Positions 18,634 through 63,142 of a DNA stretch of 64,000 nucleotides are shown here, piece by piece. Made by a program: the position numbers and the translations under genes. The stretch's first letter is position 1. The number at the start of each line of letters is the position of its first letter. Origin of the DNA: Escherichia phage UE-S1. The stretch is taken from sequence record ON568341.1; one strand, written 5' to 3'. Below the pieces are notes generated by a model. The model was not told the origin of the DNA. It made no database searches and worked only from the letters and a program-made list of their open reading frames with translations.

Positions 18634-20775
18634 TTATGGTAGGGTTATATACGTTACTGGCTGGGCAGCTTTTAATGATGCACCAGCGGCAGTTGCTGTT
18701 ATGATGGGATCTGCAATATCAATTCTATATACATTATTAACAACATATACTGCACGAGTTATATACGTTTTCAAATCATCACCATTTTCCCCAGCACCAG
18801 ATATAATGATCTCAGTACCAGCCGCTTTTGCATATTGGTTATCACCCCATGACACACCCAATGCTTCTATATACGTTTGTCCTACTGTCGTTTGTCTAAT
18901 TGTGTCATATTTTCCAAAAAATGAACCACCCACTGTTACAATATATTTTCCACCAGATTTTTTATGTATAATCGTCCCTTCTGGGAAGTATCTTCCTCCA
19001 GGAAAAGTATCATATGGAATATAATATTGCTCAACTACAGGTATTAGTACTGGACCACGGTGACCAGTACCGTCAATTGCAGTTGTTACTTTGAAATTAT
19101 TAGATGATTGATCGATTCTATCTACGTACATTTTAGAAAAACTATATTTTGAAACATTACAATCATCTTGAACAACACAGTTAGTCCAATTAGTATAAGT
19201 ATATTTAGAGCGAGTATACATACCCCCACCTTCACCTTCAGTGGAAAGGTGTTGTCCTATGACATCTAATTCTTTTGTTCTGATATCACTAAATTTAGAT
19301 GAAGATGGTAGACCACGCCAAAGAATTTTAGAACAAGTAATATTACTTAATTCTGTACTATTCAACCAATTATCCGATCCAGAAGTATAAACGATTACGG
19401 AAGACTCTGGTATATAGAGATTGGATATTTTAAAGTTTCTAGGTGGACCAGCAAATCGACCACCAGTTACACCCCAGTTAATAGATACCATACGGTTTGT
19501 GACTGTAGGATCATTAAGTAAATGTCCGGTTAAACCATCAATTACAAACTCTTTTGAACCATAAGTTATTACACCAGCAGTTGTTAACCCAGTACCAACG
19601 GAAATTAAAGATGATGGGTACACCTCATTATCAAGTATTTTGAAATCCATTCCCAATTCGACATGGATACATTGTCTAACATTATAAAGTCTATTATTCT
19701 TAATAACAAAGTTTCTAACATATTGTGTATCAGGGGCATCCAAATCATAAGGACCAGACCCAGCAACACCAATACCAATACCCCAGTTTGAAAGCGGGAT
19801 TGGTGCATCAGAACCATCAACATTTTCAATTATATTACCTTCAATTACAAAACCATCAGGATAATGTGAGTTAATAACGTTCAATTCAATTGCATCCCCG
19901 TAGATATCATGAATGTGGTTGTATGAATAACGACCAACCTTCATTTTCTCACCAGTTCCTTGTTGGAGAACGCCATATTTACATTTAGTCATTTCATTAA
20001 AGCAAAAATCTATTGTGCCAGATTGGGTCATACCTTGCATTAAGAACGCAGCAGTACTGGTAATGTTAATAAATTTATTAAAATAAAATTTACCATCCCC
20101 GCCAAAGAATTTCAAATAACAGCCAGTAAGTGTGGTGAATTGAATTTGTGAATTAATAACGGATATCATAGTTCCACCATTACCCGTAATAGTGCCACCA
20201 AACCAAGTTACATCTTCCAAATATACTGCTTTTTTGATACGATAATTACCACCTGCTTGAATTTGTATTTTATTTTCTTTTGCATAAGTTGCACACAAAT
20301 TTACAGCTTCAGTGTCATCGGTTTCCCCATCACCTTTCGCACCAAATTCTTCTGGTGTTATATAGAACTGTGCTTGTTGAACTGTACCGCCAGTAACAAG
20401 GCCAATGAAATCACCACCATTTTTACTTGATAGTGCTTTTTTATTAATGTAGAGTGATTTAATCCAAGTACCATTAGTTTTTACGAAGATATCAACAATA
20501 CCATCTTCATCAATTTGAAAATAAGTATTATTATTTTTTCCAATATCATCTGACGGTGATTGAACACCAAATAATGCATTTGGATTATCTTCAAGGTATC
20601 TAATATTAACTGCTGAATCTTGGTCTGATGGTGTTCCTACTTTTAGTGGTAGAAACTTTTCACCTAGATAATCTTTTATCGATACGGAATCATTGACGAA
20701 ATTTATCGAAGCACCATTTTTACCCAATATCATTTTTGGTTTCATGGTCCCTTCAAAATTAGAAAATACTGCCAT
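18634..20775 (-). CDS. Tailspike-like protein with pectate-lyase-type beta-helix signature (possible depolymerase); start moved to the internal ATG
   Basis: EEFGAKGDGETDDTEAVN motif; ATG at 20775 preceded by AAGGGGGGTG; the track N-terminal extension would overlap the upstream gene. Confidence 0.6.
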   Translation of the reverse strand: MAVFSNFEGTMKPKMILGKNGASINFVNDSVSIKDYLGEKFLPLKVGTPSDQDSAVNIRYLEDNPNALFGVQSPSDDIGKNNNTYFQIDEDGIVDIFVKTNGTWIKSLYINKKALSSKNGGDFIGLVTGGTVQQAQFYITPEEFGAKGDGETDDTEAVNLCATYAKENKIQIQAGGNYRIKKAVYLEDVTWFGGTITGNGGTMISVINSQIQFTTLTGCYLKFFGGDGKFYFNKFINITSTAAFLMQGMTQSGTIDFCFNEMTKCKYGVLQQGTGEKMKVGRYSYNHIHDIYGDAIELNVINSHYPDGFVIEGNIIENVDGSDAPIPLSNWGIGIGVAGSGPYDLDAPDTQYVRNFVIKNNRLYNVRQCIHVELGMDFKILDNEVYPSSLISVGTGLTTAGVITYGSKEFVIDGLTGHLLNDPTVTNRMVSINWGVTGGRFAGPPRNFKISNLYIPESSVIVYTSGSDNWLNSTELSNITCSKILWRGLPSSSKFSDIRTKELDVIGQHLSTEGEGGGMYTRSKYTYTNWTNCVVQDDCNVSKYSFSKMYVDRIDQSSNNFKVTTAIDGTGHRGPVLIPVVEQYYIPYDTFPGGRYFPEGTIIHKKSGGKYIVTVGGSFFGKYDTIRQTTVGQTYIEALGVSWGDNQYAKAAGTEIIISGAGENGDDLKTYITRAVYVVNNVYRIDIADPIITATAAGASLKAAQPVTYITLP

Positions 20776-20788
20776 TATGACACCCCCC

Positions 20789-21916
20789 TTAAATATTATC
20801 TTGAATAGGTTGGACCGGAGCTTGCCATGAAAGAGTACAAATAATTTCCATTTTACCATAAGGACTATTATTAACTGAATCATTGAATACACATGAAATA
20901 ATTTCATCTACATCTGAAACTTCATGATTTGTTTCATTAACAATAAAACGCATCTGGTGATTAATATCAAAGTAGGATGTTGGTGCAATGACAGTACCAC
21001 CAATATTTTCGTTTGCTTCACCACCGAAACGAACAAACATATCGGTTACTGGAATGGAGTAAGGTTGAAGAATATTTACATCAATATTTGAAACCACATA
21101 ACCAGCAGGACAAGTTCCTATAACCAATAGTGCGTTTGTCCATGAATGGTCAATGATATTTCTTATAGAAATTGTATCTTTACCTGGTGCACCCGGTTCA
21201 CCTTGCTTACCTTGAATACCTTGTGGACCTTCTTTACCACGGAATAAAATACCACTACTCCATTCTTTTGATGGTGGGGTGGTAGTTGTTACTTCATCTA
21301 CATAATAAAGTTTACCATCAGTGTTGTTATAGAAACAATAATCAACTGGGAGGTTTTCTATGCTTGGAAATTGATCACCACTACCGTCAATATGGAAACG
21401 ACCACGTGGACCTTGCTCGCCACGGAAAGGAATACCATCACTCCATGTTGCTGTTACTTTTTGATAAAAATATAATTTACCATCTTGTGTATTGTAAAAT
21501 GTATAGTTATCAAAAAGACCAGAACTTGGAAAATTAGTTCCCGCACTATCGATATGAAAAGGCTTACCAGCTTCACCAGTATCACCTTTACCAAATTCTA
21601 CACTAATCCATGTACTGGTTTGTTCTTGTGCATCATTTGATTTAAAATACAAAGTACTTGTGTTATTTGCCAAGCTAAGGTAGCACCAACCAAGTGGTTC
21701 ACCAACTTTGAATTTATCAGACGGAACTTCAAAACCAATCTCGTTTGGATAAAAGTTCTTACCGTTTTCACCATTTTGTCCTACAACAAGACCTAAATCT
21801 TGAATTGTATTATCGGTATAGGTTACAATTAAATGACCAGCAGCATTAATAACTAGACTTTTGATGCCGGAGTTATTACATGAACCACTGGACCCATTGT
21901 TAAATGAAATTGTCAT
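20789..21916 (-). CDS. Collagen-like repeat-containing tail fibre protein
   Basis: Gly-X-Y triplet runs (GQNGENGKN; GEQGPRGR; GKEGPQGIQGKQGEPGAPGKD). Confidence 0.6.
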   Translation of the reverse strand: MTISFNNGSSGSCNNSGIKSLVINAAGHLIVTYTDNTIQDLGLVVGQNGENGKNFYPNEIGFEVPSDKFKVGEPLGWCYLSLANNTSTLYFKSNDAQEQTSTWISVEFGKGDTGEAGKPFHIDSAGTNFPSSGLFDNYTFYNTQDGKLYFYQKVTATWSDGIPFRGEQGPRGRFHIDGSGDQFPSIENLPVDYCFYNNTDGKLYYVDEVTTTTPPSKEWSSGILFRGKEGPQGIQGKQGEPGAPGKDTISIRNIIDHSWTNALLVIGTCPAGYVVSNIDVNILQPYSIPVTDMFVRFGGEANENIGGTVIAPTSYFDINHQMRFIVNETNHEVSDVDEIISCVFNDSVNNSPYGKMEIICTLSWQAPVQPIQDNI

Positions 21917-40023: not shown

Positions 40024-40043
40024 TCATTTATTTTATTTATTAG

Positions 40044-40070
40044 ATAAAAAAGGCGTTCCGAAGAACGCCA
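40044..40070 (-). terminator. Rho-independent terminator
   Basis: GGCGTTC-cgaa-GAACGCC hairpin followed on the minus strand by T6. Confidence 0.6.
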
Positions 40071-40078
40071 GTGTAATA

Positions 40079-43000
40079 TTAAGAACCAATATTTATATTG
40101 CTTTTAGCTAATGAGTTAACTATTTGAACATTTTCTACTGATGCCGTACTCAAAAATATTTGGTCCGAACGTGATGGAATTTCAAATAGTGACCCAAATT
40201 TTGAATTTGGATTTTGTGCAACAATAACAATTGTACTAATATGTCTCCCCAATTGGGAATGTATATAAGTACACAAATCAGTGTAATAGAAACTTTCACC
40301 AAAATCCCAATTATCAACATTAAAATATTCATTTGTTAATGCAATAACATTTTGACGAATTTCATCGTCACTCATAGTACTATTTGGTAATTTAACAACT
40401 TTAAAATCAGCTTTATAGTCTTCAGCAGCACTATTGCCAAACAATGGTAGGTACTCTGCACTATGCCAAATAATACTGTCACTGATGACAATTTTTTGCT
40501 CAACATCTTTGAACATATTTTTCAATTCAACTGATGTAGGTGGTTTTGGGATACTTCCAACTGCATTATTTTTCAACCACACATCAACTTCGGTTTTATA
40601 CGAGTTAGTTAGAACATACATATCAATTAAGTTTGTTCTACTTGGATCAATGCGATTATCGTCAGGTGCATAATGTTTCCAATGGAAGTCAATACTTGTA
40701 CGAGCATTTGTTTTGACTGTGTATTGTGCAGTAACATCTTTATAACCATAGTAATCCAACTTCTGATTCTCATCAGAATTAGTACCCATGTTGTTAATTG
40801 TACGATAAAATGCGAGTTCTGGTGTAACAGTTATGGTGTCATCTGAATATGTCAAATTACTAATTAATTGACCCAAACGATCATTGTTGTTACCAACGGT
40901 TTGTTCGATGAAATAATATTTACCATCATATTTAAAACACACTAAGAATCCAGAACCTTTACTGTACAATCCACTCAATGAGTTAGAACGAATTGCATTA
41001 TTTCGTACAAATTCAGTTCTTTTATATGTATTAGGTTCAGCTAATGCTTGTTCCATCGTATAAGACCAAGATGAATCTAGAAACGTGAATGTATCATTTG
41101 GTAAAGATAGAACTGAAATAGTAAAATCATTATTTTCTTTGAATATCAAAATACCACCATATTTCAATGCATCAGTACCTGACCATTCTGGAACAATTTC
41201 TTTAAATTGGTTTGGTTCCAATGGTATACCATTACTATCTACTTTTCTAGATGTGACAATAATACGAGAGCCATCAAGATATCCATTTTCTTGCTGTATT
41301 GTATCATAAATTTGAAAATCAATATTACTCGTCAGTCCAGAATTGTTAGTACTGGTGGTGTTCGAAGATAAAATTTCAATCTTATCGCTTTGAACAGTGC
41401 CAGTACTAATATCAGTTATTTTTTTGGATGAAACAAAGTAAAATTTCACTTTATCCCCACCAACGAATATATATTCAATACCATTAGCGTCAAATTCCCA
41501 AGTTTCTGCTGTATATTTTACATTTATAACAACCAAAACTTCATGACCATTATACATAATAGTATCATCATTCGTACTTACTTCTACCGGAACCCATGCA
41601 GTTGTTTCTTTGTCATGCACAATGACAAAATCAGTTTTCTTATCCAACATTGCAGAAATAGATTGAACTTCAACGGAATCAAACCTAGTTCTATATGGTA
41701 ATATATAATCAATTGCTTGCATTCTACTTGGTACGGATGTACTTAATACATAAAACCCATTATCTAATACACTAACAATACTTGCCCATACTGTAGTGGT
41801 AGAGTTAGAAAATTTAATCAAAGTACCCACCTGATACGAGCCATATACAGTCCCAGATGAACCCAAAATTCTACCATATGTATTTGTAGTATAATTTGAA
41901 TTATATACAGGCGTCCATGATTGTTGGATTTCAATGCCAATCGTATTGGAAGGGTAAGCTTGATAGCGTTGTATTACCGCATTTTCACCAATCAATGGTT
42001 GAATATTATCAATAACAATGCTGGCATTAGTTTTTGTTGTTGGTAGTAATAGTGACCTATTAAATTTAGTATTTTCTTGATATAATGCCCCGTCATCACT
42101 AAACACATCAGTGTTTTGGTATTTTCCAGTAGGATCATTGATGTCAATAAATCTAGACTGACCACTATAAATTCTATTAATAGCTTTCGACTTAAGCACT
42201 GTATTCCCTAAACTAAGGGGTGCTATATTATAATCTTCACCATTAACAAAGCGGTTTTGTGTATAGTACATTTGTGGTGCACGTGCTTTAATCTGCTCAA
42301 TTGTCTCAGCACTTTGTGCACGATCTGATTCATATTGTAATGAAAAACGTACATCCAACGTACTAGATTCATAACTTGATTGTGTTTTAGTTCGATATGT
42401 ATACTTTACACTTTTATTTTGAATTTCTGATGTTTTAATGTTATACGTTTTACCATTACTGACGCGATACCACACGCGAAAAGTTCCACGCGGCACAACA
42501 CCACTTCTAGAATCTGGATATTTAATTGTTATTTGGTCTTTGTCACGTGTTGAAACAGCAAAAATTGTTTTTAATTGACGGTTAACCGTATTATATGCAA
42601 TACTTTCCATAGATGGTACTTTTGTCCATTTCGCACGCACAATACCATCTTCATTAATTTCTTGAACCCAAACATCAGTTTCGTTTATATTATCAACGTT
42701 TACATCTTGTATTCTATTTTCTTCACGAATATTATATTGATAATCTTGATATGTCAACGTCCCTTGTATAAAATATACAAAAAAACCAGTATTTGGTGAA
42801 CTGAATCCATTACCATCATTTTGATAGACAATATATTTTTGTTCTTGCGGTTCTGGGTGACGTTCCTCAACACCAACGGATGTAATGTCAGGGTTTACCA
42901 CTTCAAATGTCATAGATTCACCATTTACTGTTGCAACAAATGGTATACTTGGTGCAGTCATTGGAATTGTATTCATCCTATACAATTGTCGAGATACACC

Positions 43001-43540: not shown

Positions 43541-43604
43541 AATTTATTCCTTTAAATCAGTAAAGTACTAGTTCAGTACTGGGAATTATATAGAAATATT
43601 TATT

Positions 43605-43637
43605 CAAAAAGAAAAGCACTCAGAAGAGTGCTTTTTC
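43605..43637 (-). terminator. Rho-independent terminator
   Basis: AGCACTC-agaa-GAGTGCT hairpin flanked by A/T tracts. Confidence 0.55.
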
Positions 43638-43641
43638 TTAG

Positions 43642-44037
43642 TTATAAAGACGATACAGAATATGTTGCCATTCTATTATTACTTCTTGCATCAAAGACTA
43701 TAGAAAGTTCTTCTACCGTATTCAATACAACGTATTGTAATACGATATTCATTTGGTATCCATATTCAATTCTTGAAATTTGTATGTTTTTAAGATTTAA
43801 GCGTGGATCTAAGCTAATAATCCTACGTGCATCTGCTTCTAAAAGGTTAATAGTATTATATCCTTCCAATTCAAACAACAAATCCCATGCAATAAACCCA
43901 TAGTCTGCATCGAATGCTCTTTCGCCTTTTTTTGTATTAAAATGATTCATCAAATCCTGACGAACCAATTCATTATCATACAACGTTTCAGTTCTACCCA
44001 CAACTGGTGTAGAGAAACCTTTGAAAACAACTGCCAT
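43642..44037 (-). CDS. Baseplate wedge protein, gp25 / GPW-like
   Basis: 131 aa; GxxxRxFDADYGFxxWDLLFE pattern typical of the gp25/W family; sits between the spike-lysozyme and gp6-like genes. Confidence 0.6.
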   Translation of the reverse strand: MAVVFKGFSTPVVGRTETLYDNELVRQDLMNHFNTKKGERAFDADYGFIAWDLLFELEGYNTINLLEADARRIISLDPRLNLKNIQISRIEYGYQMNIVLQYVVLNTVEELSIVFDARSNNRMATYSVSSL

Positions 44038-44050
44038 TGTCTATTTCCTT

Positions 44051-44539
44051 TTATACGGATTCGACGATACGTGCCATCTTTTCCGCTCTAGAAGTGGTTT
44101 GTTTATACCATGTACTATCACGCAATTCTTTACCAGCAGTTTTATAATCAGCTTTACCTAATGCGGACATTGCTTTTTTGAATTTCAAAACTTTGGTTTT
44201 ACCCATTTGGAATACCATCATCCACAATACACGTTGTACCTGTACTGGTGCTGTCATACCAAACTGTTCATAAATGGATTTTGCGTCATTGTACGCAGTT
44301 TGAGCATCTTTAATAAGAAGTTGGTCTGCTTGTTCTTCAGTTAAACCATTTTTGAAGTTCTCGTTGGGAAGAACTAAATGACCATAACCAATAGTATCAA
44401 GTCCGAGGCTATCTTTATATACCCAAAACTTATCATTTTTAAAATATCCAAGTTTTTTTTGATAAGAAATTGTACCTTCAAACTCTTTAATTTCTTTAAA
44501 AAACTGCTCATCTGTATTTTTAATTTCCCATTTACTCAT
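44051..44539 (-). CDS. Glycoside hydrolase family 24 lysozyme (T4 lysozyme-like), free-standing
   Basis: T4-lysozyme-like catalytic triad positions (E in KEFEG, D in KDSLG, T in DTIGYGH) and MVFQMG motif. Confidence 0.85.
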   Translation of the reverse strand: MSKWEIKNTDEQFFKEIKEFEGTISYQKKLGYFKNDKFWVYKDSLGLDTIGYGHLVLPNENFKNGLTEEQADQLLIKDAQTAYNDAKSIYEQFGMTAPVQVQRVLWMMVFQMGKTKVLKFKKAMSALGKADYKTAGKELRDSTWYKQTTSRAEKMARIVESV

Positions 44540-44555
44540 AAAGACATCCTCATTT

Positions 44556-44563
44556 TATTTATA
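44556..44563 (-). promoter_or_regulatory. T4 late-promoter-like TATAAATA box
   Basis: Plus-strand TATTTATA is the reverse complement of TATAAATA, 17 nt upstream of the lysozyme start. Confidence 0.35.
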
Positions 44564-44575
44564 GTACTGAAATAT

Positions 44576-47239
44576 TTATTGACATGCCTCCAAACGTCGA
44601 GCCATTAACTCAGCACGGCGTGTCGTTTGGCGATACCAAGCCGAATTACGGATTTGTGCTGCTGCTTGTTTATAATTTCCTTTCGCTAATTCAGATAACA
44701 TTGTTTTAAATTTAAGAACTCCACCTTTGCCCATTTGAAATACCATTTGACATAGAACTTGCTGTGCCATATAAGGAGTTTTCATGTTATATGATGCATA
44801 AATTGATTTAGCATCATAAATTGCTTTACTACTATCACGAACAAGCATATCATTTGCTTGTTGTTCAGTTATACCAGAAGAAAAGTTTTCGCCATTCACG
44901 ATTAAATGACCGTAACCAATAGTTGGGTAGCCACGACTATCCAAATAACGCCAGAATTTACCATTTCGATAATACCCTTTTGCTTGTTGATATTGCATAG
45001 TACCCTCATATTCCTTTAATTCGGAAATAAATTGAGAATCACCTGGGACAATTTTCCAATCTATTGCAGTTTTATCTACATTACCGACATTATATGTTGG
45101 TTGTACAACTGGTGTAGATGATACACCACTTCTCTGTGTTCTTCTTTTACGAGGTACATGTCGTGAGCCACGCTGTGAATAACCAGTACCAATTGTTTTA
45201 ATTTTGGTAGTAACGACCAATTCATCACTATCAACGGATGGTTGTACTACTGCTTGCGGTGAAGATTGATTTGTTGCTTGACCTGCAATCAATGTTTTAT
45301 TAGCTGCATCTGCACCAATACCAGTTTGTGATGCATAAAATAATCCTGGGTCAACTGAACCACTAAAGCCGAGGACGTTAGCTGACGTTACACGTATTTC
45401 AAATTGCATAACACCATTTGCTTTACCAATGACCTGTCCCTTTTGAACTACATCCTTGTTTAGTAAATTCGTTTGAATATTATAAAATATAGATTTATAA
45501 CCAGATTTATGTTGAATCAAAATCCCACCATTAGTAATTACAACAACACCACCATCTGGTGCAACAACATCTCCTTTACATTGTATTTCCCATCCAGAAC
45601 GGTCAGTCTTTCCTCCATTTTGTGTTGGAATGCCTTTTCCCCAATAGCCGTATTGACGAATGGTCCCACTACACGGCATATACATATGCAAACCTTCATA
45701 TGTAATGCTATACCCAGTCATTCCAGTATCAGATACCATTAAATCTTGTGTTTGAACTTGTTCGGTTTCGGGTGTATAGTTCACAAACTGAATAGCTTCA
45801 GTTTCTTGAGCTTCAGGAATTTCTGGTGTAACATCATTTGCAGGCTGTGGCTGAACAGGGGATTCACTTGAAATCTTCCCCCCACCTTGTCTTGGTGGTT
45901 CAACATAACTACCATGGTTTTTCGCATCAACCCATGAAACAATGTCATGAATGTGTTCATTAAGACCAGCAGATGGTGTTCTGAAATTTGGTGCAGTAAA
46001 TTCAGCAGTACCGCTATTACCACCACTATTAACTGTTAATGTTTGACCTCCACCACTAACAATTGCTGAAGATGAACCAATTAAGTTTGCAGATGTAGAA
46101 GCAGAAATAGACGCATTTGAACCAGCAGTAATATCAGTACTGCTACCACTTTGCATACGTAAGGACGCAGCAGTGACCAGTCGAAGATCAGCACCGGAAT
46201 TAACCACAACTTGTCCACCAACTTTTGCATCAAGAGTTCCAATTAGATCTAATTTAGTATTGGCTCCTACGCGTGCATTAAAATCTTGACCCGTTTCAAT
46301 ATTATATGAACGACCAGCAGTGATGTTAATATCTTGCCCTGCACGAATATTGATATTCTTATCACAGTGCATGTCAATATCCCCTTCACCAGTAAATTTT
46401 ATACGGGCGGTCCCATCACGATTAATTAAAAGTACATCCCCCGTTGCTTCTGATAATAAAAGTTGTGCACCACTACGGGTTTTTATTACAACTCCTTCAT
46501 TTTTACGAGAACCAACACGGGTGTCGTTTACTGGGTTATTGAATTGTGTATCTTGATATCCATCTGGGTCTTGATCCCATGTGGGTGCAGTTAATTCCTC
46601 TTCGGTATAGCCATCATCAATGATGAAACTATTTCCACGTGGGGATGACATCCCATATACAGTACTCGTTGTTTGGCGAGTACTACTTCGGTTAGCAAGG
46701 CCAGCTTCTTCATCATACAAAAGGTTTTGCTTTTTAAGACCAGCAATAATTGGAACATTTGCATATTTGTCTTGCATATCAGTAGTGAGTGTGTTACGAT
46801 CATAGTCAGTAACAGGAAGAGGCATATCTGTTCCGCTATAATTACTAACATCTGTTGCCATACCAGGGACCATAGTATTCATGCGATGGTCATATACACA
46901 ACCAATCCAATACGCTTGAAATGTACGAGCCTGTGCGAAAATCACAACAACAGTGCACCCAACATCAGGCGGCACAGCCCAGAATCCATAACCTTTAGGA
47001 TACTGTCCATAAGCATCTGCACTTGGAATACCTGGTGTTTTACCAGCAAAAGGAGACATATAAGATGCCTCAATCCATGATTCTTTTGAATTTTTATCGC
47101 TTTGTGAACCTTGTATCCAAACTTTTAACTTTCCAGATTTAGTTGGATCTCTATTATCCATAACTGTTGCTAATTGTGGATAAGCTGGGTCAAAACGACC
47201 CAACTGTTGTTGTGCATACTTTTTACTTGTATCTGCCAT
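44576..47239 (-). CDS. Baseplate central spike protein (gp5-like) with M23/LytM-like beta-barrel region and C-terminal GH24 lysozyme domain
   Basis: C-terminal ~160 aa paralogous to the free lysozyme (EYEG, LDSRG, PTIGYGH, MVFQMG); preceding region matches an M23-like pattern (I-H-G-Y-S-Y ... GQVIGKANG). Confidence 0.75.
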   Translation of the reverse strand: MADTSKKYAQQQLGRFDPAYPQLATVMDNRDPTKSGKLKVWIQGSQSDKNSKESWIEASYMSPFAGKTPGIPSADAYGQYPKGYGFWAVPPDVGCTVVVIFAQARTFQAYWIGCVYDHRMNTMVPGMATDVSNYSGTDMPLPVTDYDRNTLTTDMQDKYANVPIIAGLKKQNLLYDEEAGLANRSSTRQTTSTVYGMSSPRGNSFIIDDGYTEEELTAPTWDQDPDGYQDTQFNNPVNDTRVGSRKNEGVVIKTRSGAQLLLSEATGDVLLINRDGTARIKFTGEGDIDMHCDKNINIRAGQDINITAGRSYNIETGQDFNARVGANTKLDLIGTLDAKVGGQVVVNSGADLRLVTAASLRMQSGSSTDITAGSNASISASTSANLIGSSSAIVSGGGQTLTVNSGGNSGTAEFTAPNFRTPSAGLNEHIHDIVSWVDAKNHGSYVEPPRQGGGKISSESPVQPQPANDVTPEIPEAQETEAIQFVNYTPETEQVQTQDLMVSDTGMTGYSITYEGLHMYMPCSGTIRQYGYWGKGIPTQNGGKTDRSGWEIQCKGDVVAPDGGVVVITNGGILIQHKSGYKSIFYNIQTNLLNKDVVQKGQVIGKANGVMQFEIRVTSANVLGFSGSVDPGLFYASQTGIGADAANKTLIAGQATNQSSPQAVVQPSVDSDELVVTTKIKTIGTGYSQRGSRHVPRKRRTQRSGVSSTPVVQPTYNVGNVDKTAIDWKIVPGDSQFISELKEYEGTMQYQQAKGYYRNGKFWRYLDSRGYPTIGYGHLIVNGENFSSGITEQQANDMLVRDSSKAIYDAKSIYASYNMKTPYMAQQVLCQMVFQMGKGGVLKFKTMLSELAKGNYKQAAAQIRNSAWYRQTTRRAELMARRLEACQ

Positions 47240-50577: not shown

Positions 50578-50604
50578 AAGGGAACATTTGATGTATTTAT
50601 ACGT

Positions 50605-50689: not shown

Positions 50690-51529
50690 ATGACAAATAG
50701 ACCAAAGCGTAAAAAGTATCTCAATAATGCTGATTTACTTCGTGAAATACAAAAAAGTAAGATTTCATATTGCTGGTTATTAGACAAATCATATAGTATG
50801 TATGATTATATCGTTTTTCATGAGTCAGAAATTACTGCTGAGTTACTTGAAAAAGCAAAAGCAGCACGAATTAAACGACTTAACAATGAAATGCTTGATA
50901 GTATTCGTGCAAAGGAAAATATGAGTGCTAAAAAAGCGAAAGAATATGCAGAAGAAAATAATCTAGTTATTACTGATGTTCCAATTGATGAAGTAGTTAT
51001 TCGTGTTATTACAGATGAACACATCCCACCAGATACTAGAGTTAATTTTGAACCTTTCAAACATTATATCGTAGATAATGAAGGTATTCTTTATGAAGTA
51101 TGTCGCTCTCATTGGAAAGGTGACCTTGAATCTGGGGAATTTAGTACTGTTCATGGTAAAATAACAAATGAACTAGGGAAAATGTTCATTAAACTAGCAG
51201 AGGAAATCTCACATAAATCTAACTATAGAAACTATACATACTTAGATGAAATGATGGGTGATGCAAGAATACAATTAGTTAAAAATGCACTTCTCTTTAA
51301 AGAGAGTATTCTTTATAAAAAAGACAAACCCGCTGTACAACTAAATCCTTTCTCTTACTATACATCATTCGTAAACAATAGTTTTCGTTCAATTTTGAAT
51401 AGTGAGAAAAATGTTCGAAATATACGTGATGATTTACTTGAAATGCATGGCTTTACACCATCACATACACGTCAAATTGAAATTGAATTGAACATGATTG
51501 AAAGGAAAAATGAAGATGGCACTGTTTGA
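50690..51529 (+). CDS. gp55-like late-transcription sigma factor with an internal insertion
   Basis: YLNNADLLREIQKSK resembles the T4 gp55 N-terminus; distal segments GKMFIKLAEEIS and FSYYTSFVNNSFRSIL resemble gp55 core regions (from memory); GGAGAG ribosome-binding site. Confidence 0.5.
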   Translation: MTNRPKRKKYLNNADLLREIQKSKISYCWLLDKSYSMYDYIVFHESEITAELLEKAKAARIKRLNNEMLDSIRAKENMSAKKAKEYAEENNLVITDVPIDEVVIRVITDEHIPPDTRVNFEPFKHYIVDNEGILYEVCRSHWKGDLESGEFSTVHGKITNELGKMFIKLAEEISHKSNYRNYTYLDEMMGDARIQLVKNALLFKESILYKKDKPAVQLNPFSYYTSFVNNSFRSILNSEKNVRNIRDDLLEMHGFTPSHTRQIEIELNMIERKNEDGTV

Positions 51530-59459: not shown

Positions 59460-61199
59460 ATGAGTTGGAAACGACATATGACAGTGGGAAGGTCAAAGCT
59501 ATCGACTATCCCAAATCAGTCCAATAATAGCAATAAATCAACAGGAACAAAAACCAATTTTGCTTCCTATCTTCCAGTTGTATATAATGGATTGGCAAAC
59601 CGTACTGAACGTTATAGTCAGTATGAGCAAATGGACCAAGACCCTGAAATTAGAACTGCATTGAATATCATTGCTGACTTTTGTACTCAAAGTACTGAAG
59701 ATTATGGTTTACCATATAAAATAAAATACAAAGATGATATTGGGGATACTGAAGTAACAACGATTGAAGATCGTTTAGATGCATGGACTGAACAAAATGA
59801 TTTTAAAACACGAATGTATGAGATTGTACGTGGTCTTTTGAAATATGGGGACCAGTTTTTTATCCGAGATCCAGAAACATTTGATTGGTATTGGGTGAGT
59901 CCAAAAAACGTCGAACAAGTATTTGTTAATGAAGCAACTGGGAAAACACCAGTAATTTATTACATACGTGATGTATCATTAAACTTAAAAGATAAAGTTT
60001 ATAGTAATCTACAAGTTGGATTCGATAAAACCGCTTATCCTGGTGCTATTCCTACAACAATGGGTGGTGGTGGTTCTGTCGCTGCTGGCGGTGCATCTGG
60101 ATTCACTAGTCAAGGTAATACTGCTGACCCTTTCAGCACTAATGGTCAATTAGATGTTATTCCTGTTGGTGCAGAACACGTAATCCATTTGACGCTAAAT
60201 ACTGGACAAGATGGAGTATGGCCTTTTGGTACTAGTATACTTGAGGATGTATTCAAAGTTTATAAACAAAAAGAACTTCTAGAAGATAGTATCATAATTT
60301 ATCGTGTACAACGTGCTCCAGAACGTCGTGTTTTTAAAATCGATGTTGGTGATATGCAAGCACATCAGGCAATGGCTTATGTGGAAAGATTTAAAAATGA
60401 AATTCATCAGCGTAGAATACCTTCAAACAAAGGTGGAAGTACTTCTTTAATGGATGCAGCATATAATCCTTTAAGTATATTAGAAGATTACTTTTTCCCA
60501 CAAACTTCTGAAGGTCGTGGTTCGGATGTTCAAACTTTACCAGGTGGTGATAACTTAGGGCAAATTGATGACTTACGCTACTTCAATAATAAATTGATAC
60601 GTGGTCTTCAAATACCAGCTTCCTATCTACCACAAGGTCCAGATGATGGTGGTGTTTCATTATTTGGTGATGGTGCAACACAAGCTATGGCAAGTGAATT
60701 ACGATTCAATAATCAATGTATGCGTTATCAGCGTTTAGTTGCGAAACATTTTGATGCTGAATTCAAAAGATTTATGGTAAAAAATGGATATAATATTAGT
60801 ACTTCATCATTTGAAGTCATTATGAATCCACCAATTAACTTAGCTTCTTATCGTAAAGCTGAATTGGATGCTAAATTAATTAATACATATCTACCTCTTA
60901 ATGATTTACCTTATATGGCTAAACAAACAATTCTTGAGAAAATGGGCTTTTCTAAAGCAGATATTGTTAAGAATGAACAAATGTGGTTACAAGAGAATCC
61001 ACAAGATGGTTCTCAACCTTCTAGTGGTGAAGAAGATTCTGCTGGATTACAGTCTGTTGGTATTGATGCACCAAATGACCCAGGTATGGATCTTGGTATT
61101 GACGGTGATGGTAATTTAGAAAGTGCTGATTCCGAATATCAAGAACAACAAAGTGGAAGTGATGGTTTCAATCCTAATAATTTAGGCAATTCTTTTTAA
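59460..61199 (+). CDS. Portal vertex protein (gp20-like), tentative
   Basis: 579 aa; position immediately before the small core protein, protease and scaffold genes as in T4 (20-67-68-21-22); weak N-terminal pattern resemblance. Confidence 0.45.
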   Translation: MSWKRHMTVGRSKLSTIPNQSNNSNKSTGTKTNFASYLPVVYNGLANRTERYSQYEQMDQDPEIRTALNIIADFCTQSTEDYGLPYKIKYKDDIGDTEVTTIEDRLDAWTEQNDFKTRMYEIVRGLLKYGDQFFIRDPETFDWYWVSPKNVEQVFVNEATGKTPVIYYIRDVSLNLKDKVYSNLQVGFDKTAYPGAIPTTMGGGGSVAAGGASGFTSQGNTADPFSTNGQLDVIPVGAEHVIHLTLNTGQDGVWPFGTSILEDVFKVYKQKELLEDSIIIYRVQRAPERRVFKIDVGDMQAHQAMAYVERFKNEIHQRRIPSNKGGSTSLMDAAYNPLSILEDYFFPQTSEGRGSDVQTLPGGDNLGQIDDLRYFNNKLIRGLQIPASYLPQGPDDGGVSLFGDGATQAMASELRFNNQCMRYQRLVAKHFDAEFKRFMVKNGYNISTSSFEVIMNPPINLASYRKAELDAKLINTYLPLNDLPYMAKQTILEKMGFSKADIVKNEQMWLQENPQDGSQPSSGEEDSAGLQSVGIDAPNDPGMDLGIDGDGNLESADSEYQEQQSGSDGFNPNNLGNSF

Positions 61200-63095: not shown

Positions 63096-63142
63096 TCTGT
63101 ATGTTGAAGTACAGATATTTCAGTACTTAAAGGAGAGAACGA

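Follow-up and report, generated by a model that had tools for sequence, protein, structure and literature searches.

The jumbo myophages related to Klebsiella phage RaK2 are known to carry more than one lysozyme. In RaK2 itself three were listed, with lysozyme domains 50-66% similar, and the odd domain order of the spike protein was noted (PMC3622015). In phage CBB the products CBB_238, CBB_239 and CBB_240 were described as, respectively, a gp25-like protein, a T4-type lysozyme and a protein combining a gp5-type OB fold with M23 and lysozyme domains; among these, homologs of CBB_238 and CBB_240 alone were confirmed in virions, and a third lysozyme with a transmembrane (TM) segment and a LysM domain was predicted to be the endolysin, its expression being apparently toxic (PMC5259590). 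The spike, the small free-standing lysozyme and the TM-LysM enzyme form an orthologous trio, namely ORF078, ORF073 and ORF029 in RaK2, CBB_240, CBB_239 and CBB_187 in CBB, and gp587, gp586 and gp532 in phage 121Q (PMC3622015; PMC5259590). Here we examine the corresponding locus of Escherichia phage UE-S1 in a stretch of 64,000 nucleotides (nt) from sequence record ON568341.1, referred to below as the window, in which a central spike gene of 887 amino acids (aa) (44576..47239, minus strand; an open reading frame (ORF) with Pfam matches to Phage_base_V, DUF2345 and Phage_lysozyme) is followed by a gene for a free-standing 162-aa lysozyme of family GH24 (44051..44539, minus strand). From the same phage the enzyme LysUE1, a GH24 protein with a pI of about 9.2, has been found lytic in vitro on EDTA-treated cells in a study that tested it as a recombinant antibacterial only (PMC12805682). 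The primers used to clone LysUE1 are an exact match to the two ends of the free gene in the window.

The window is 88% identical in nucleotide sequence to the Escherichia phages ph0011, 121Q, PBECO4 and phAPEC6 of the genus Asteriusvirus and shares their gene order, and thus it is part of a RaK2-like, Asteriusvirus-related jumbo myophage; Klebsiella RaK2-type phages are 60-80% identical to this region. The order spike, free lysozyme, gp25-like gene and gp6-like gene is common to UE-S1 and 121Q, and both lysozyme domains are 96% identical in aa sequence between them. At 88% nt identity, however, the UE-S1 phage is distinct from 121Q, and it lacks an HNH gene that 121Q has after its gp25-like gene. 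An identical 162-aa free lysozyme with the same neighbours is also encoded on a 344-kb metagenomic scaffold.

The locus invites comparison with gp5 and e of phage T4, which are likewise paralogous spike-borne and free T4-type lysozymes, the T4 spike having an OB fold and a β-helix and T4 late promoters being of the TATAAATA type. However, in T4 gp5 the lysozyme comes after the OB fold and before the helix, and gene e stands apart from gene 5, whereas in the window the spike lysozyme follows the helix on a long linker with a LytM-like domain interposed. Moreover, relative to T4 lysozyme, 13 extra residues stand between the catalytic Glu and Asp, as they do in all RaK2-type copies, and the relatives of UE-S1 possess a third lysozyme.

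Much of this is already known, that is, the tandem lysozymes, the third paralog, the layout of the spike, the weak M23 match and the activity of the free enzyme: the three lysozymes were published in 2013 (PMC3622015), the M23 hit in the spike in 2017 (PMC5259590) and the activity of the free enzyme in 2025 (PMC12805682). The RaK2 and CBB papers give no date or direction for the duplication and make no mention of an M23 domain without metal ligands (PMC3622015; PMC5259590), and in the literature that we searched no paper joins a degenerate LytM domain with a phage tail spike. What we add is incremental and concerns the timing and polarity of the duplication, estimates of selection, a dead LytM domain throughout the spike family, and positional evidence on the TATAAATA box. 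These results leave the current understanding of phage entry and lysis unchanged. Their chief value lies in correct annotation, in that the free lysozyme is a separate, old and active enzyme and annotators should not take the 'M23 peptidase' of the spike for a further enzymatic activity.

Our explanation of the locus is that the spike carries a tethered dead LytM domain together with a lysozyme, and that the free gene is an ancient duplicate of the latter, most likely with a role on the lysis side; in this explanation, taken as a whole, we have slightly better than even confidence.

Relationship and active sites of the two lysozymes

An earlier note on the window had described the C-terminal part of the spike and the gene downstream, at 44051-45067, as clearly paralogous lysozymes that both keep the Glu, Asp and Thr of T4 lysozyme, and formal alignment agrees on each point. 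The interval comprises exactly the free gene and spike residues 725-887. When the spike is aligned with the free ORF by BLASTP, 84 of 159 residues are identical (53%) without a gap (E 1e-58), and both proteins exceed the gathering score (22.3 bits) of the Pfam family Phage_lysozyme (PF00959), the spike with 46.0 bits and the free copy with 37.9 bits; both are T4-type lysozymes of family GH24. The spike lysozyme domain (aa 725-887; 44579..45067, minus strand) also matches structures of T4 lysozyme and gp5 in phmmer searches (E 3e-11 to 1e-8). Residues E11, D20 and T26 of T4 lysozyme correspond to E21, D43 and T49 in the free copy and to E745, D767 and T773 in the spike, so that all three are present in each. 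Without exception the 21 aligned domains have the catalytic Glu and Asp, whose loss was seen in just one of 48 spike homologs (P0086).

Both copies are under strong purifying selection, with a ratio of nonsynonymous to synonymous substitution (dN/dS) of about 0.05; for the one ortholog pair compared, the window against 121Q, the values are 0.048 for the free copy and 0.047 for the spike lysozyme domain. The free copy consists of the lysozyme domain alone and has a hydrophilic N-terminus, without signal peptide or TM segment. Neither net charge nor pI separates free from fused copies. As a separate observation, the spike lysozyme domain of the Vibrio phage is acidic (pI 5.1), whereas the pI is 9.0-9.6 in all others.

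An old duplication

The two genes are adjacent and clearly homologous, which speaks for the possibility raised in the earlier note, a recent tandem duplication by which the functions of penetration and endolysin came to be separated. However, the paralogs in the window are 58% identical in nucleotide sequence and 47% identical at third codon positions, and synonymous sites between them are saturated (proportion of synonymous differences, pS, 0.73; dN 0.45). The longest identical run in the alignment is just 11 nt, which also indicates that there has been no recent gene conversion. Nor does the distribution of the pair fit a recent event, since spike and free copy occur together in every relative that we checked at 49-97% spike identity, with carriers in at least four genera (Asteriusvirus, Alcyoneusvirus, Eneladusvirus and Mimasvirus), in Salmonella phage Munch and in two deep metagenomic lineages. 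Among the named carriers are 121Q, RaK2, Munch, an Erwinia Eneladusvirus, the Xanthomonas Mimasvirus XbC2 and the two metagenomic lineages, with spikes down to 49-52% identity. Each free copy is moreover nearer to most free copies of other genera than to the spike domain of its own genome, although for pEa19 and XbC2 the two ranges overlap. The free copy is absent from Vibrio phage 2.275.O and from the P0076 and P0081 contigs (40-44% spike identity), where the fused domain is found and gp25 comes directly after the spike.

A neighbour-joining (NJ) tree was built on 162 columns with the free copies of eight genomes and three lineages without a free copy, the third paralog gp532 being excluded. 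In this tree the eight free copies form one clade with 89% bootstrap support and branch broadly in parallel with the spike domains. The grouping of free copies with the spike domains of their own genomes, to the exclusion of the three lineages that have no free copy, is supported at 65%, and monophyly of all spike domains at 3%. Taking the saturated synonymous sites, the spread of the pair and the tree together, we reject a recent duplication, to which we attach almost no probability, and conclude that the duplication is old.

The simplest history is one in which the fused domain came first and the free gene arose when the 3' end of the spike gene was duplicated, a single time. This event falls in the ancestor of the phages whose spikes are at least 49% identical to that of UE-S1, a clade of enterobacterial and Xanthomonas RaK2-like phages, after its split from the lineages that have the fused domain only. 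Since that time the free copy has been retained as an active enzyme. Weighing against this history, the tree is unstable once the long-branch gp532 is added, which then joins the fast-evolving spike domain of Munch, and support is only moderate for an NJ tree of 162 columns. This polarity, from fused domain to free gene, clearly exemplifies how a soluble lysin can be derived from a virion-borne one and is of some interest for enzybiotic mining in jumbo phages.

Late expression of the free gene

The late-promoter-like box that the earlier note had assigned to the free copy is indeed present, an exact TATAAATA being read directly from the sequence at 44556..44563 (minus strand), 16 nt upstream of the free lysozyme ATG. 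The gap between the spike stop and this ATG is 36 nt, and a GAGGA Shine-Dalgarno sequence lies at 44547-44551, between the box and the ATG. In the window there are seven exact TATAAATA sites against 10.4 expected, a count not above chance, and with the total below expectation it is only the place of the box relative to gene starts that is informative. Five of the seven lie at most 60 nt upstream of a start on the same strand, a zone that makes up 2% of positions (binomial P 6e-8), and with the focal site left out four of the other six still fall in it (P about 2e-6); three gene starts were adjusted, by homology or by Shine-Dalgarno sequence, before this comparison.

One of these boxes, at 50594..50601 (minus strand), is 34 nt upstream of the first gene in the minus-strand baseplate string that runs to the spike and the lysozyme, the start of this first gene (50559) having been set by homology to 121Q gene 590 and a GGAG Shine-Dalgarno sequence. 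At 50690..51529 on the plus strand is a homolog of the 121Q 'sigma factor for late transcription' (T4 gp55-like), assigned from position and synteny with 121Q_591 only, which is the presumed reader of TATAAATA. The box of the free gene is identical in 121Q, and in RaK2, where genes on the opposite strand cut the free gene off from the spike, an exact TATAAATA is found about 38 nt before the ATG. Use of the box as a promoter in its own right is made less certain by its distance from the free ATG, which is unusually short compared with the 30-47 nt at other sites, and by its partial match in Munch and absence in Eneladusvirus (pEa19).

A scan for terminators found an intrinsic-terminator-like hairpin, with a 10-pair stem followed by a T run, at 43612..43635 (minus strand), after the gp25-like gene, and none in either gap flanking the lysozyme gene, towards the spike or towards gp25. 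A second minus-strand hairpin of this kind follows the gp6-like gene (40069..40052), and weaker hairpins occur within coding sequence, including one at 43967-43943 in the gp25-like gene. Given the positions of TATAAATA and the lack of an intergenic terminator before the end of gp25, the free lysozyme is a late gene whether its own promoter is used or not.

A further arrangement of these elements was seen at 40034-40097 (minus strand), before the gene for a 3331-aa protein, where an exact TATAAATA within the end of the gp6-like gene is followed by a strong terminator hairpin (40069-40052). Between this hairpin and the ATG, 10 nt short of the latter, is AATAAATA, an order that suggests termination and then re-initiation at a variant box.

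A non-catalytic LytM domain on the spike

The layout of the spike was taken from a full-length AlphaFold2 (AF2) monomer of low overall confidence (pTM 0.33, mean pLDDT 69) in which the individual domains are confident; all structure models used here are single chains of a trimeric protein. All segments are given on the minus strand. The N-terminal OB-fold domain (aa 23-116; 46892..47173; Pfam PF04717, 29.8 bits with a cut-off of 23.8) matches a VgrG structure of the type VI secretion system (T6SS), 9jg8, by phmmer (E 2e-6). It is followed by a β-helix needle (about aa 250-470; 45830..46492; Pfam DUF2345, PF10106, 34.2 bits with a cut-off of 30.7), which aligns by sequence to the β-helix of VgrG1 (4uhv and 4mtk) and is modelled with a pLDDT of 77-86. 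Disordered linker 1 (aa 486-511; 45707..45784; pLDDT below 50) overlaps the block with the highest dN/dS within the spike (aa 441-505; 0.15) and leads to the LytM/M23-like domain (aa 512-655; 45275..45706). A second linker, mostly disordered (aa 656-724; 45068..45274; pLDDT below 50 at 660-668 and 681-715), then connects this domain to the lysozyme. An N-terminal OB fold and a β-helix, both with Pfam scores above cut-off and matches to VgrG structures, in a neighbourhood of baseplate genes (gp53-like, gp25-like and gp6-like), are the features of a gp5/VgrG-type spike, and orthologs have been found by mass spectrometry in virions of CBB and phAPEC6 (PMC5259590; PMC7247149).

The M23/LytM-like region upstream of the lysozyme had been noticed earlier, with its HxH seemingly replaced and perhaps non-catalytic, and this description holds, the HxxxD motif being lost as well. 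Against the Pfam family Peptidase_M23 the complete spike reaches 20.2 bits and the domain by itself 25.8 bits, each short of the cut-off of 28.7 bits. Across the family the resemblance is borne out, the profile being matched at E<=0.01 by 28 of 30 homologous domains (best 6.5e-11). In an active-site alignment of 48 homologs down to 37% identity there is no HxxxD and no HxH in any sequence. Their places are occupied by 'GWEIQ' and 'VMQFEIR', H577 is the sole conserved His of the domain, and the columns at metal-ligand positions vary; the assignment of these positions is approximate (Gly549/Gln553 or Arg547/Glu551), which does not affect the absence of the motifs.

The isolated domain is modelled by AF2 with a pLDDT of 89.4, and Foldseek ranks the inactive LytM domains of DipM and EnvC highest among the matches of the model. 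A profile of the 30 homologs matches LasA, SpoIIQ and DipM among PDB sequences at 1e-6 to 1e-4 and aligns with E. coli EnvC (E 5.7e-8), with VMQFEIR placed over SLYFEIR. Other searches gave less. The isolated segment had no match in a large protein database, the spike homologs having been collected with the full-length spike as query; its phmmer search of PDB sequences was insignificant (TagE, E 0.84); hhalign gave a weak alignment with a LytM sequence; and against the active M23 domain of a related spike hhalign covered the middle of the domain only. With a dN/dS of 0.046 between the window and 121Q the domain is nevertheless strongly constrained, and W550, R616 and a DPGLFY motif are invariant. 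It is a LytM domain of the degenerate, non-catalytic kind, and one that has been so since before the spike lineages diverged.

Two other functions for this domain have to be weighed. If it were an active M23 endopeptidase, the spike would be a bifunctional wall hydrolase like phi29 gp13, but with HxxxD and HxH in none of the 48 homologs, a single conserved His and variable ligand columns we find this scarcely believable; the spike also differs from gp13 in that the M23 domain of the latter is catalytic, its domain order is reversed and it is not part of a spike needle. A LytM fold without zinc ligands is, on the other hand, what EnvC, NlpD, DipM and SpoIIQ have, and these are cellular regulators or scaffolds to which the spike domain is likened by fold only. 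A dead LytM could act in the manner of EnvC, NlpD and DipM, its groove docking and controlling an autolysin, such that the spike would deliver a mimic of these proteins into the periplasm and switch on an autolysin at the entry site. The autolysin could come from the host, as one of the amidases AmiA/B/C, or from the phage, as its fused or its free lysozyme. We regard such a regulator as rather improbable; if it were true, the dead LytM, the fused lysozyme and the free lysozyme would make up one regulated wall-opening device.

What the free lysozyme may do

Searches with tblastn indicate three lysozyme places per RaK2-like genome. Within the window the third was not found, and a weak tblastn match at 60693-60983, which lies in the portal gene, was discarded as spurious. 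In 121Q the third enzyme is gp532, whose N-terminal TM segment is followed by a LysM and a lysozyme domain (Pfam). It stands some 60 kb away from the pair, with a gene annotated as an Rz-like spanin (511) in its vicinity; both are 60-70 kb off, beyond the region covered by the window.

The free copy is a soluble enzyme without an export signal, and it is active, as seen from the lysis of permeabilised cells by LysUE1. In this respect it is like an endolysin, with muralytic activity taken from the literature, and we give about an even chance, by analogy with T4 gene e, to a role on the side of lysis, which we favour over a role in the virion. Whether the pair represents a split of penetration from endolysin functions is nevertheless uncertain, and several points weigh against it. 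The gene is not in a lysis cassette, its neighbours being two baseplate genes, those for the spike and gp25, with no intergenic terminator and no holin or spanin nearby. Furthermore, if gp532-type enzymes are self-exporting endolysins, a cytoplasmic lysozyme would have no obvious route to the wall before lysis. Finally, the virion proteomes are weak negative evidence, because small low-copy proteins escape them too. In phAPEC6 the spike was found and the small lysozyme was not listed, gp25 being missed as well (PMC7247149), which makes the absence of the free copy a weak negative, and in RaK2 proteomics missed even the spike (PMC3622015).

Some of these points would suit a free lysozyme that is built into the virion in few copies, as an additional lysozyme of the tail or baseplate that assembles with hub and spike and acts at penetration. 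The gene lies between spike and gp25 in one late unit with no terminator-like hairpin in the gaps, its position is kept in the checked relatives that have the gene (RaK2 having a 1.8-kb insert), and a separate endolysin candidate exists. In addition, a lysozyme-like protein, gp173, which may or may not be homologous to the free gene, was detected in virions of the more distant PA5oct (PMC7318152). However, the lists of virion proteins for CBB and phAPEC6 do not include the free copy, whereas the spike, present in three copies, was found in both (PMC5259590; PMC7247149). As a lysozyme domain alone it has no extra segment for anchoring in the baseplate, and the names that it bears in databases stem from similarity to the spike domain and not from experiment. 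We consider a virion role unlikely, if less so than the regulatory function of the LytM domain discussed above.

In the mechanism that we favour, with the free copy acting at lysis, the spike would, on contraction of the sheath, reach the periplasm with both its tethered domains, the LytM-like one and the lysozyme, and the spike lysozyme would cut glycan strands locally to let the tube pass. The dead LytM would not act as an enzyme but would bind peptidoglycan or a partner protein. The role of the free copy is the least certain step: the gene would be expressed late, by read-through of the baseplate unit and probably also from its own TATAAATA promoter, and its product would accumulate late as a soluble cytoplasmic muramidase. 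This muramidase would most likely act on the wall from within once the membrane is breached, beside the anchored LysM-lysozyme. The free copy would then stand to the spike as gene e does to gene 5 in T4.

Further features of the spike

With its lysozyme C-terminal to the helix, and not in the T4 gp5 order of OB fold, lysozyme and helix, the spike has a layout that resembles an evolved VgrG rather than T4 gp5. 'Evolved' VgrG proteins of the T6SS, such as V. cholerae VgrG-3, have C-terminal effector domains. The likeness consists in an OB fold and β-helix that match VgrG structures and in wall-degrading cargo placed after the needle, whereas the spike differs in being a phage baseplate protein, in having no gp27-like module in the chain and in carrying two tethered domains as cargo. 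The C-terminal cargo of related spikes varies. P0097 has an M23 domain with intact HWGID...HLH and a trypsin-like protease, P0111 a GH19-like domain, and P0090 a lysozyme without LytM in which the Glu-Asp spacing is canonical for T4 lysozyme. In this the architecture is akin to that of an 'evolved VgrG' whose wall-degrading cargo can be exchanged. The still more distant spike of PA5oct has 477 aa and is without any enzyme domain. A search of NCBIfam gave far sub-threshold matches only.

After the β-helix the spike has the sequence H429-I-H431 (45947..45955, minus strand), in which both His are invariant in 48 homologs down to 37% identity and which is possibly a metal-binding motif at the apex of the needle. 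It may be comparable to the iron-binding HxH of P2 gpV and phi92 gp138; the chain of the spike extends 456 residues past it. An alignment of HIH to 'HHHH' of 4uhv was dismissed as a His-tag artefact. At the equivalent place remoter spikes carry (H/F)EPxxxH, namely TFEPCPEH in PA5oct, THEPYVNH in P0097 and QHEPWLGH in P0111. A Cys 2-3 residues from the C-terminus of the spike (...LEACQ; 44579-44590, minus strand) is present in most homologs of the free-copy clade, three having Ala, and is absent from every free copy and from more distant spikes.

Neighbouring genes and minor observations

The free lysozyme is separated by a 13-nt spacer from the gp25-like baseplate wedge gene (43642..44037, minus strand; Pfam GPW_gp25, 35.5 bits; PHROG 43), which is the final gene of the transcription unit. 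Beyond it are genes for a gp6-like protein (1153 aa) and then for the giant 3331-aa protein, and all genes of the locus are on the minus strand. In 121Q the gp25-like and gp6-like genes have between them gene 584, which codes for an HNH endonuclease and bears the note 'associated with group I intron'; the corresponding place in the window is just a 100-nt spacer (43541-43641) that holds a two-way terminator hairpin. The 1.8-kb insert that separates spike from free lysozyme in RaK2 contains four small ORFs, of which two run on the opposite strand, and none of the four is convincingly holin-like. Elsewhere in the window, the ORFs at 18634..20907 and 20789..21916 overlap by 119 nt as listed (20789-20907, minus strand), and the true start of the downstream gene is probably later than its first in-frame start codon.

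The palindrome AGTACT, often as CAGTACT, is strongly over-represented in the window, with 77 sites in 64 kb (1.2/kb against 0.34/kb by base composition), and is the top hexamer by order-4 Markov z-score (5.7). Shuffles of synonymous codons that preserve the proteins gave 31.5 +/- 4.5 for AGTACT (77 observed) and 17 +/- 3.6 for CAGTACT (66 observed). Examples are found at 44563-44573 (minus strand), 63117-63127 (plus strand), 14669, 35035 and 37271, and 121Q is likewise rich in AGTACT (1.7-2.1/kb). The 11-mer ATTTCAGTACT occurs 18 times with at most one mismatch, against 2.8 expected, and exact copies adjoin two TATAAATA boxes. The excess of AGTACT may possibly reflect a site of binding, modification or nicking.

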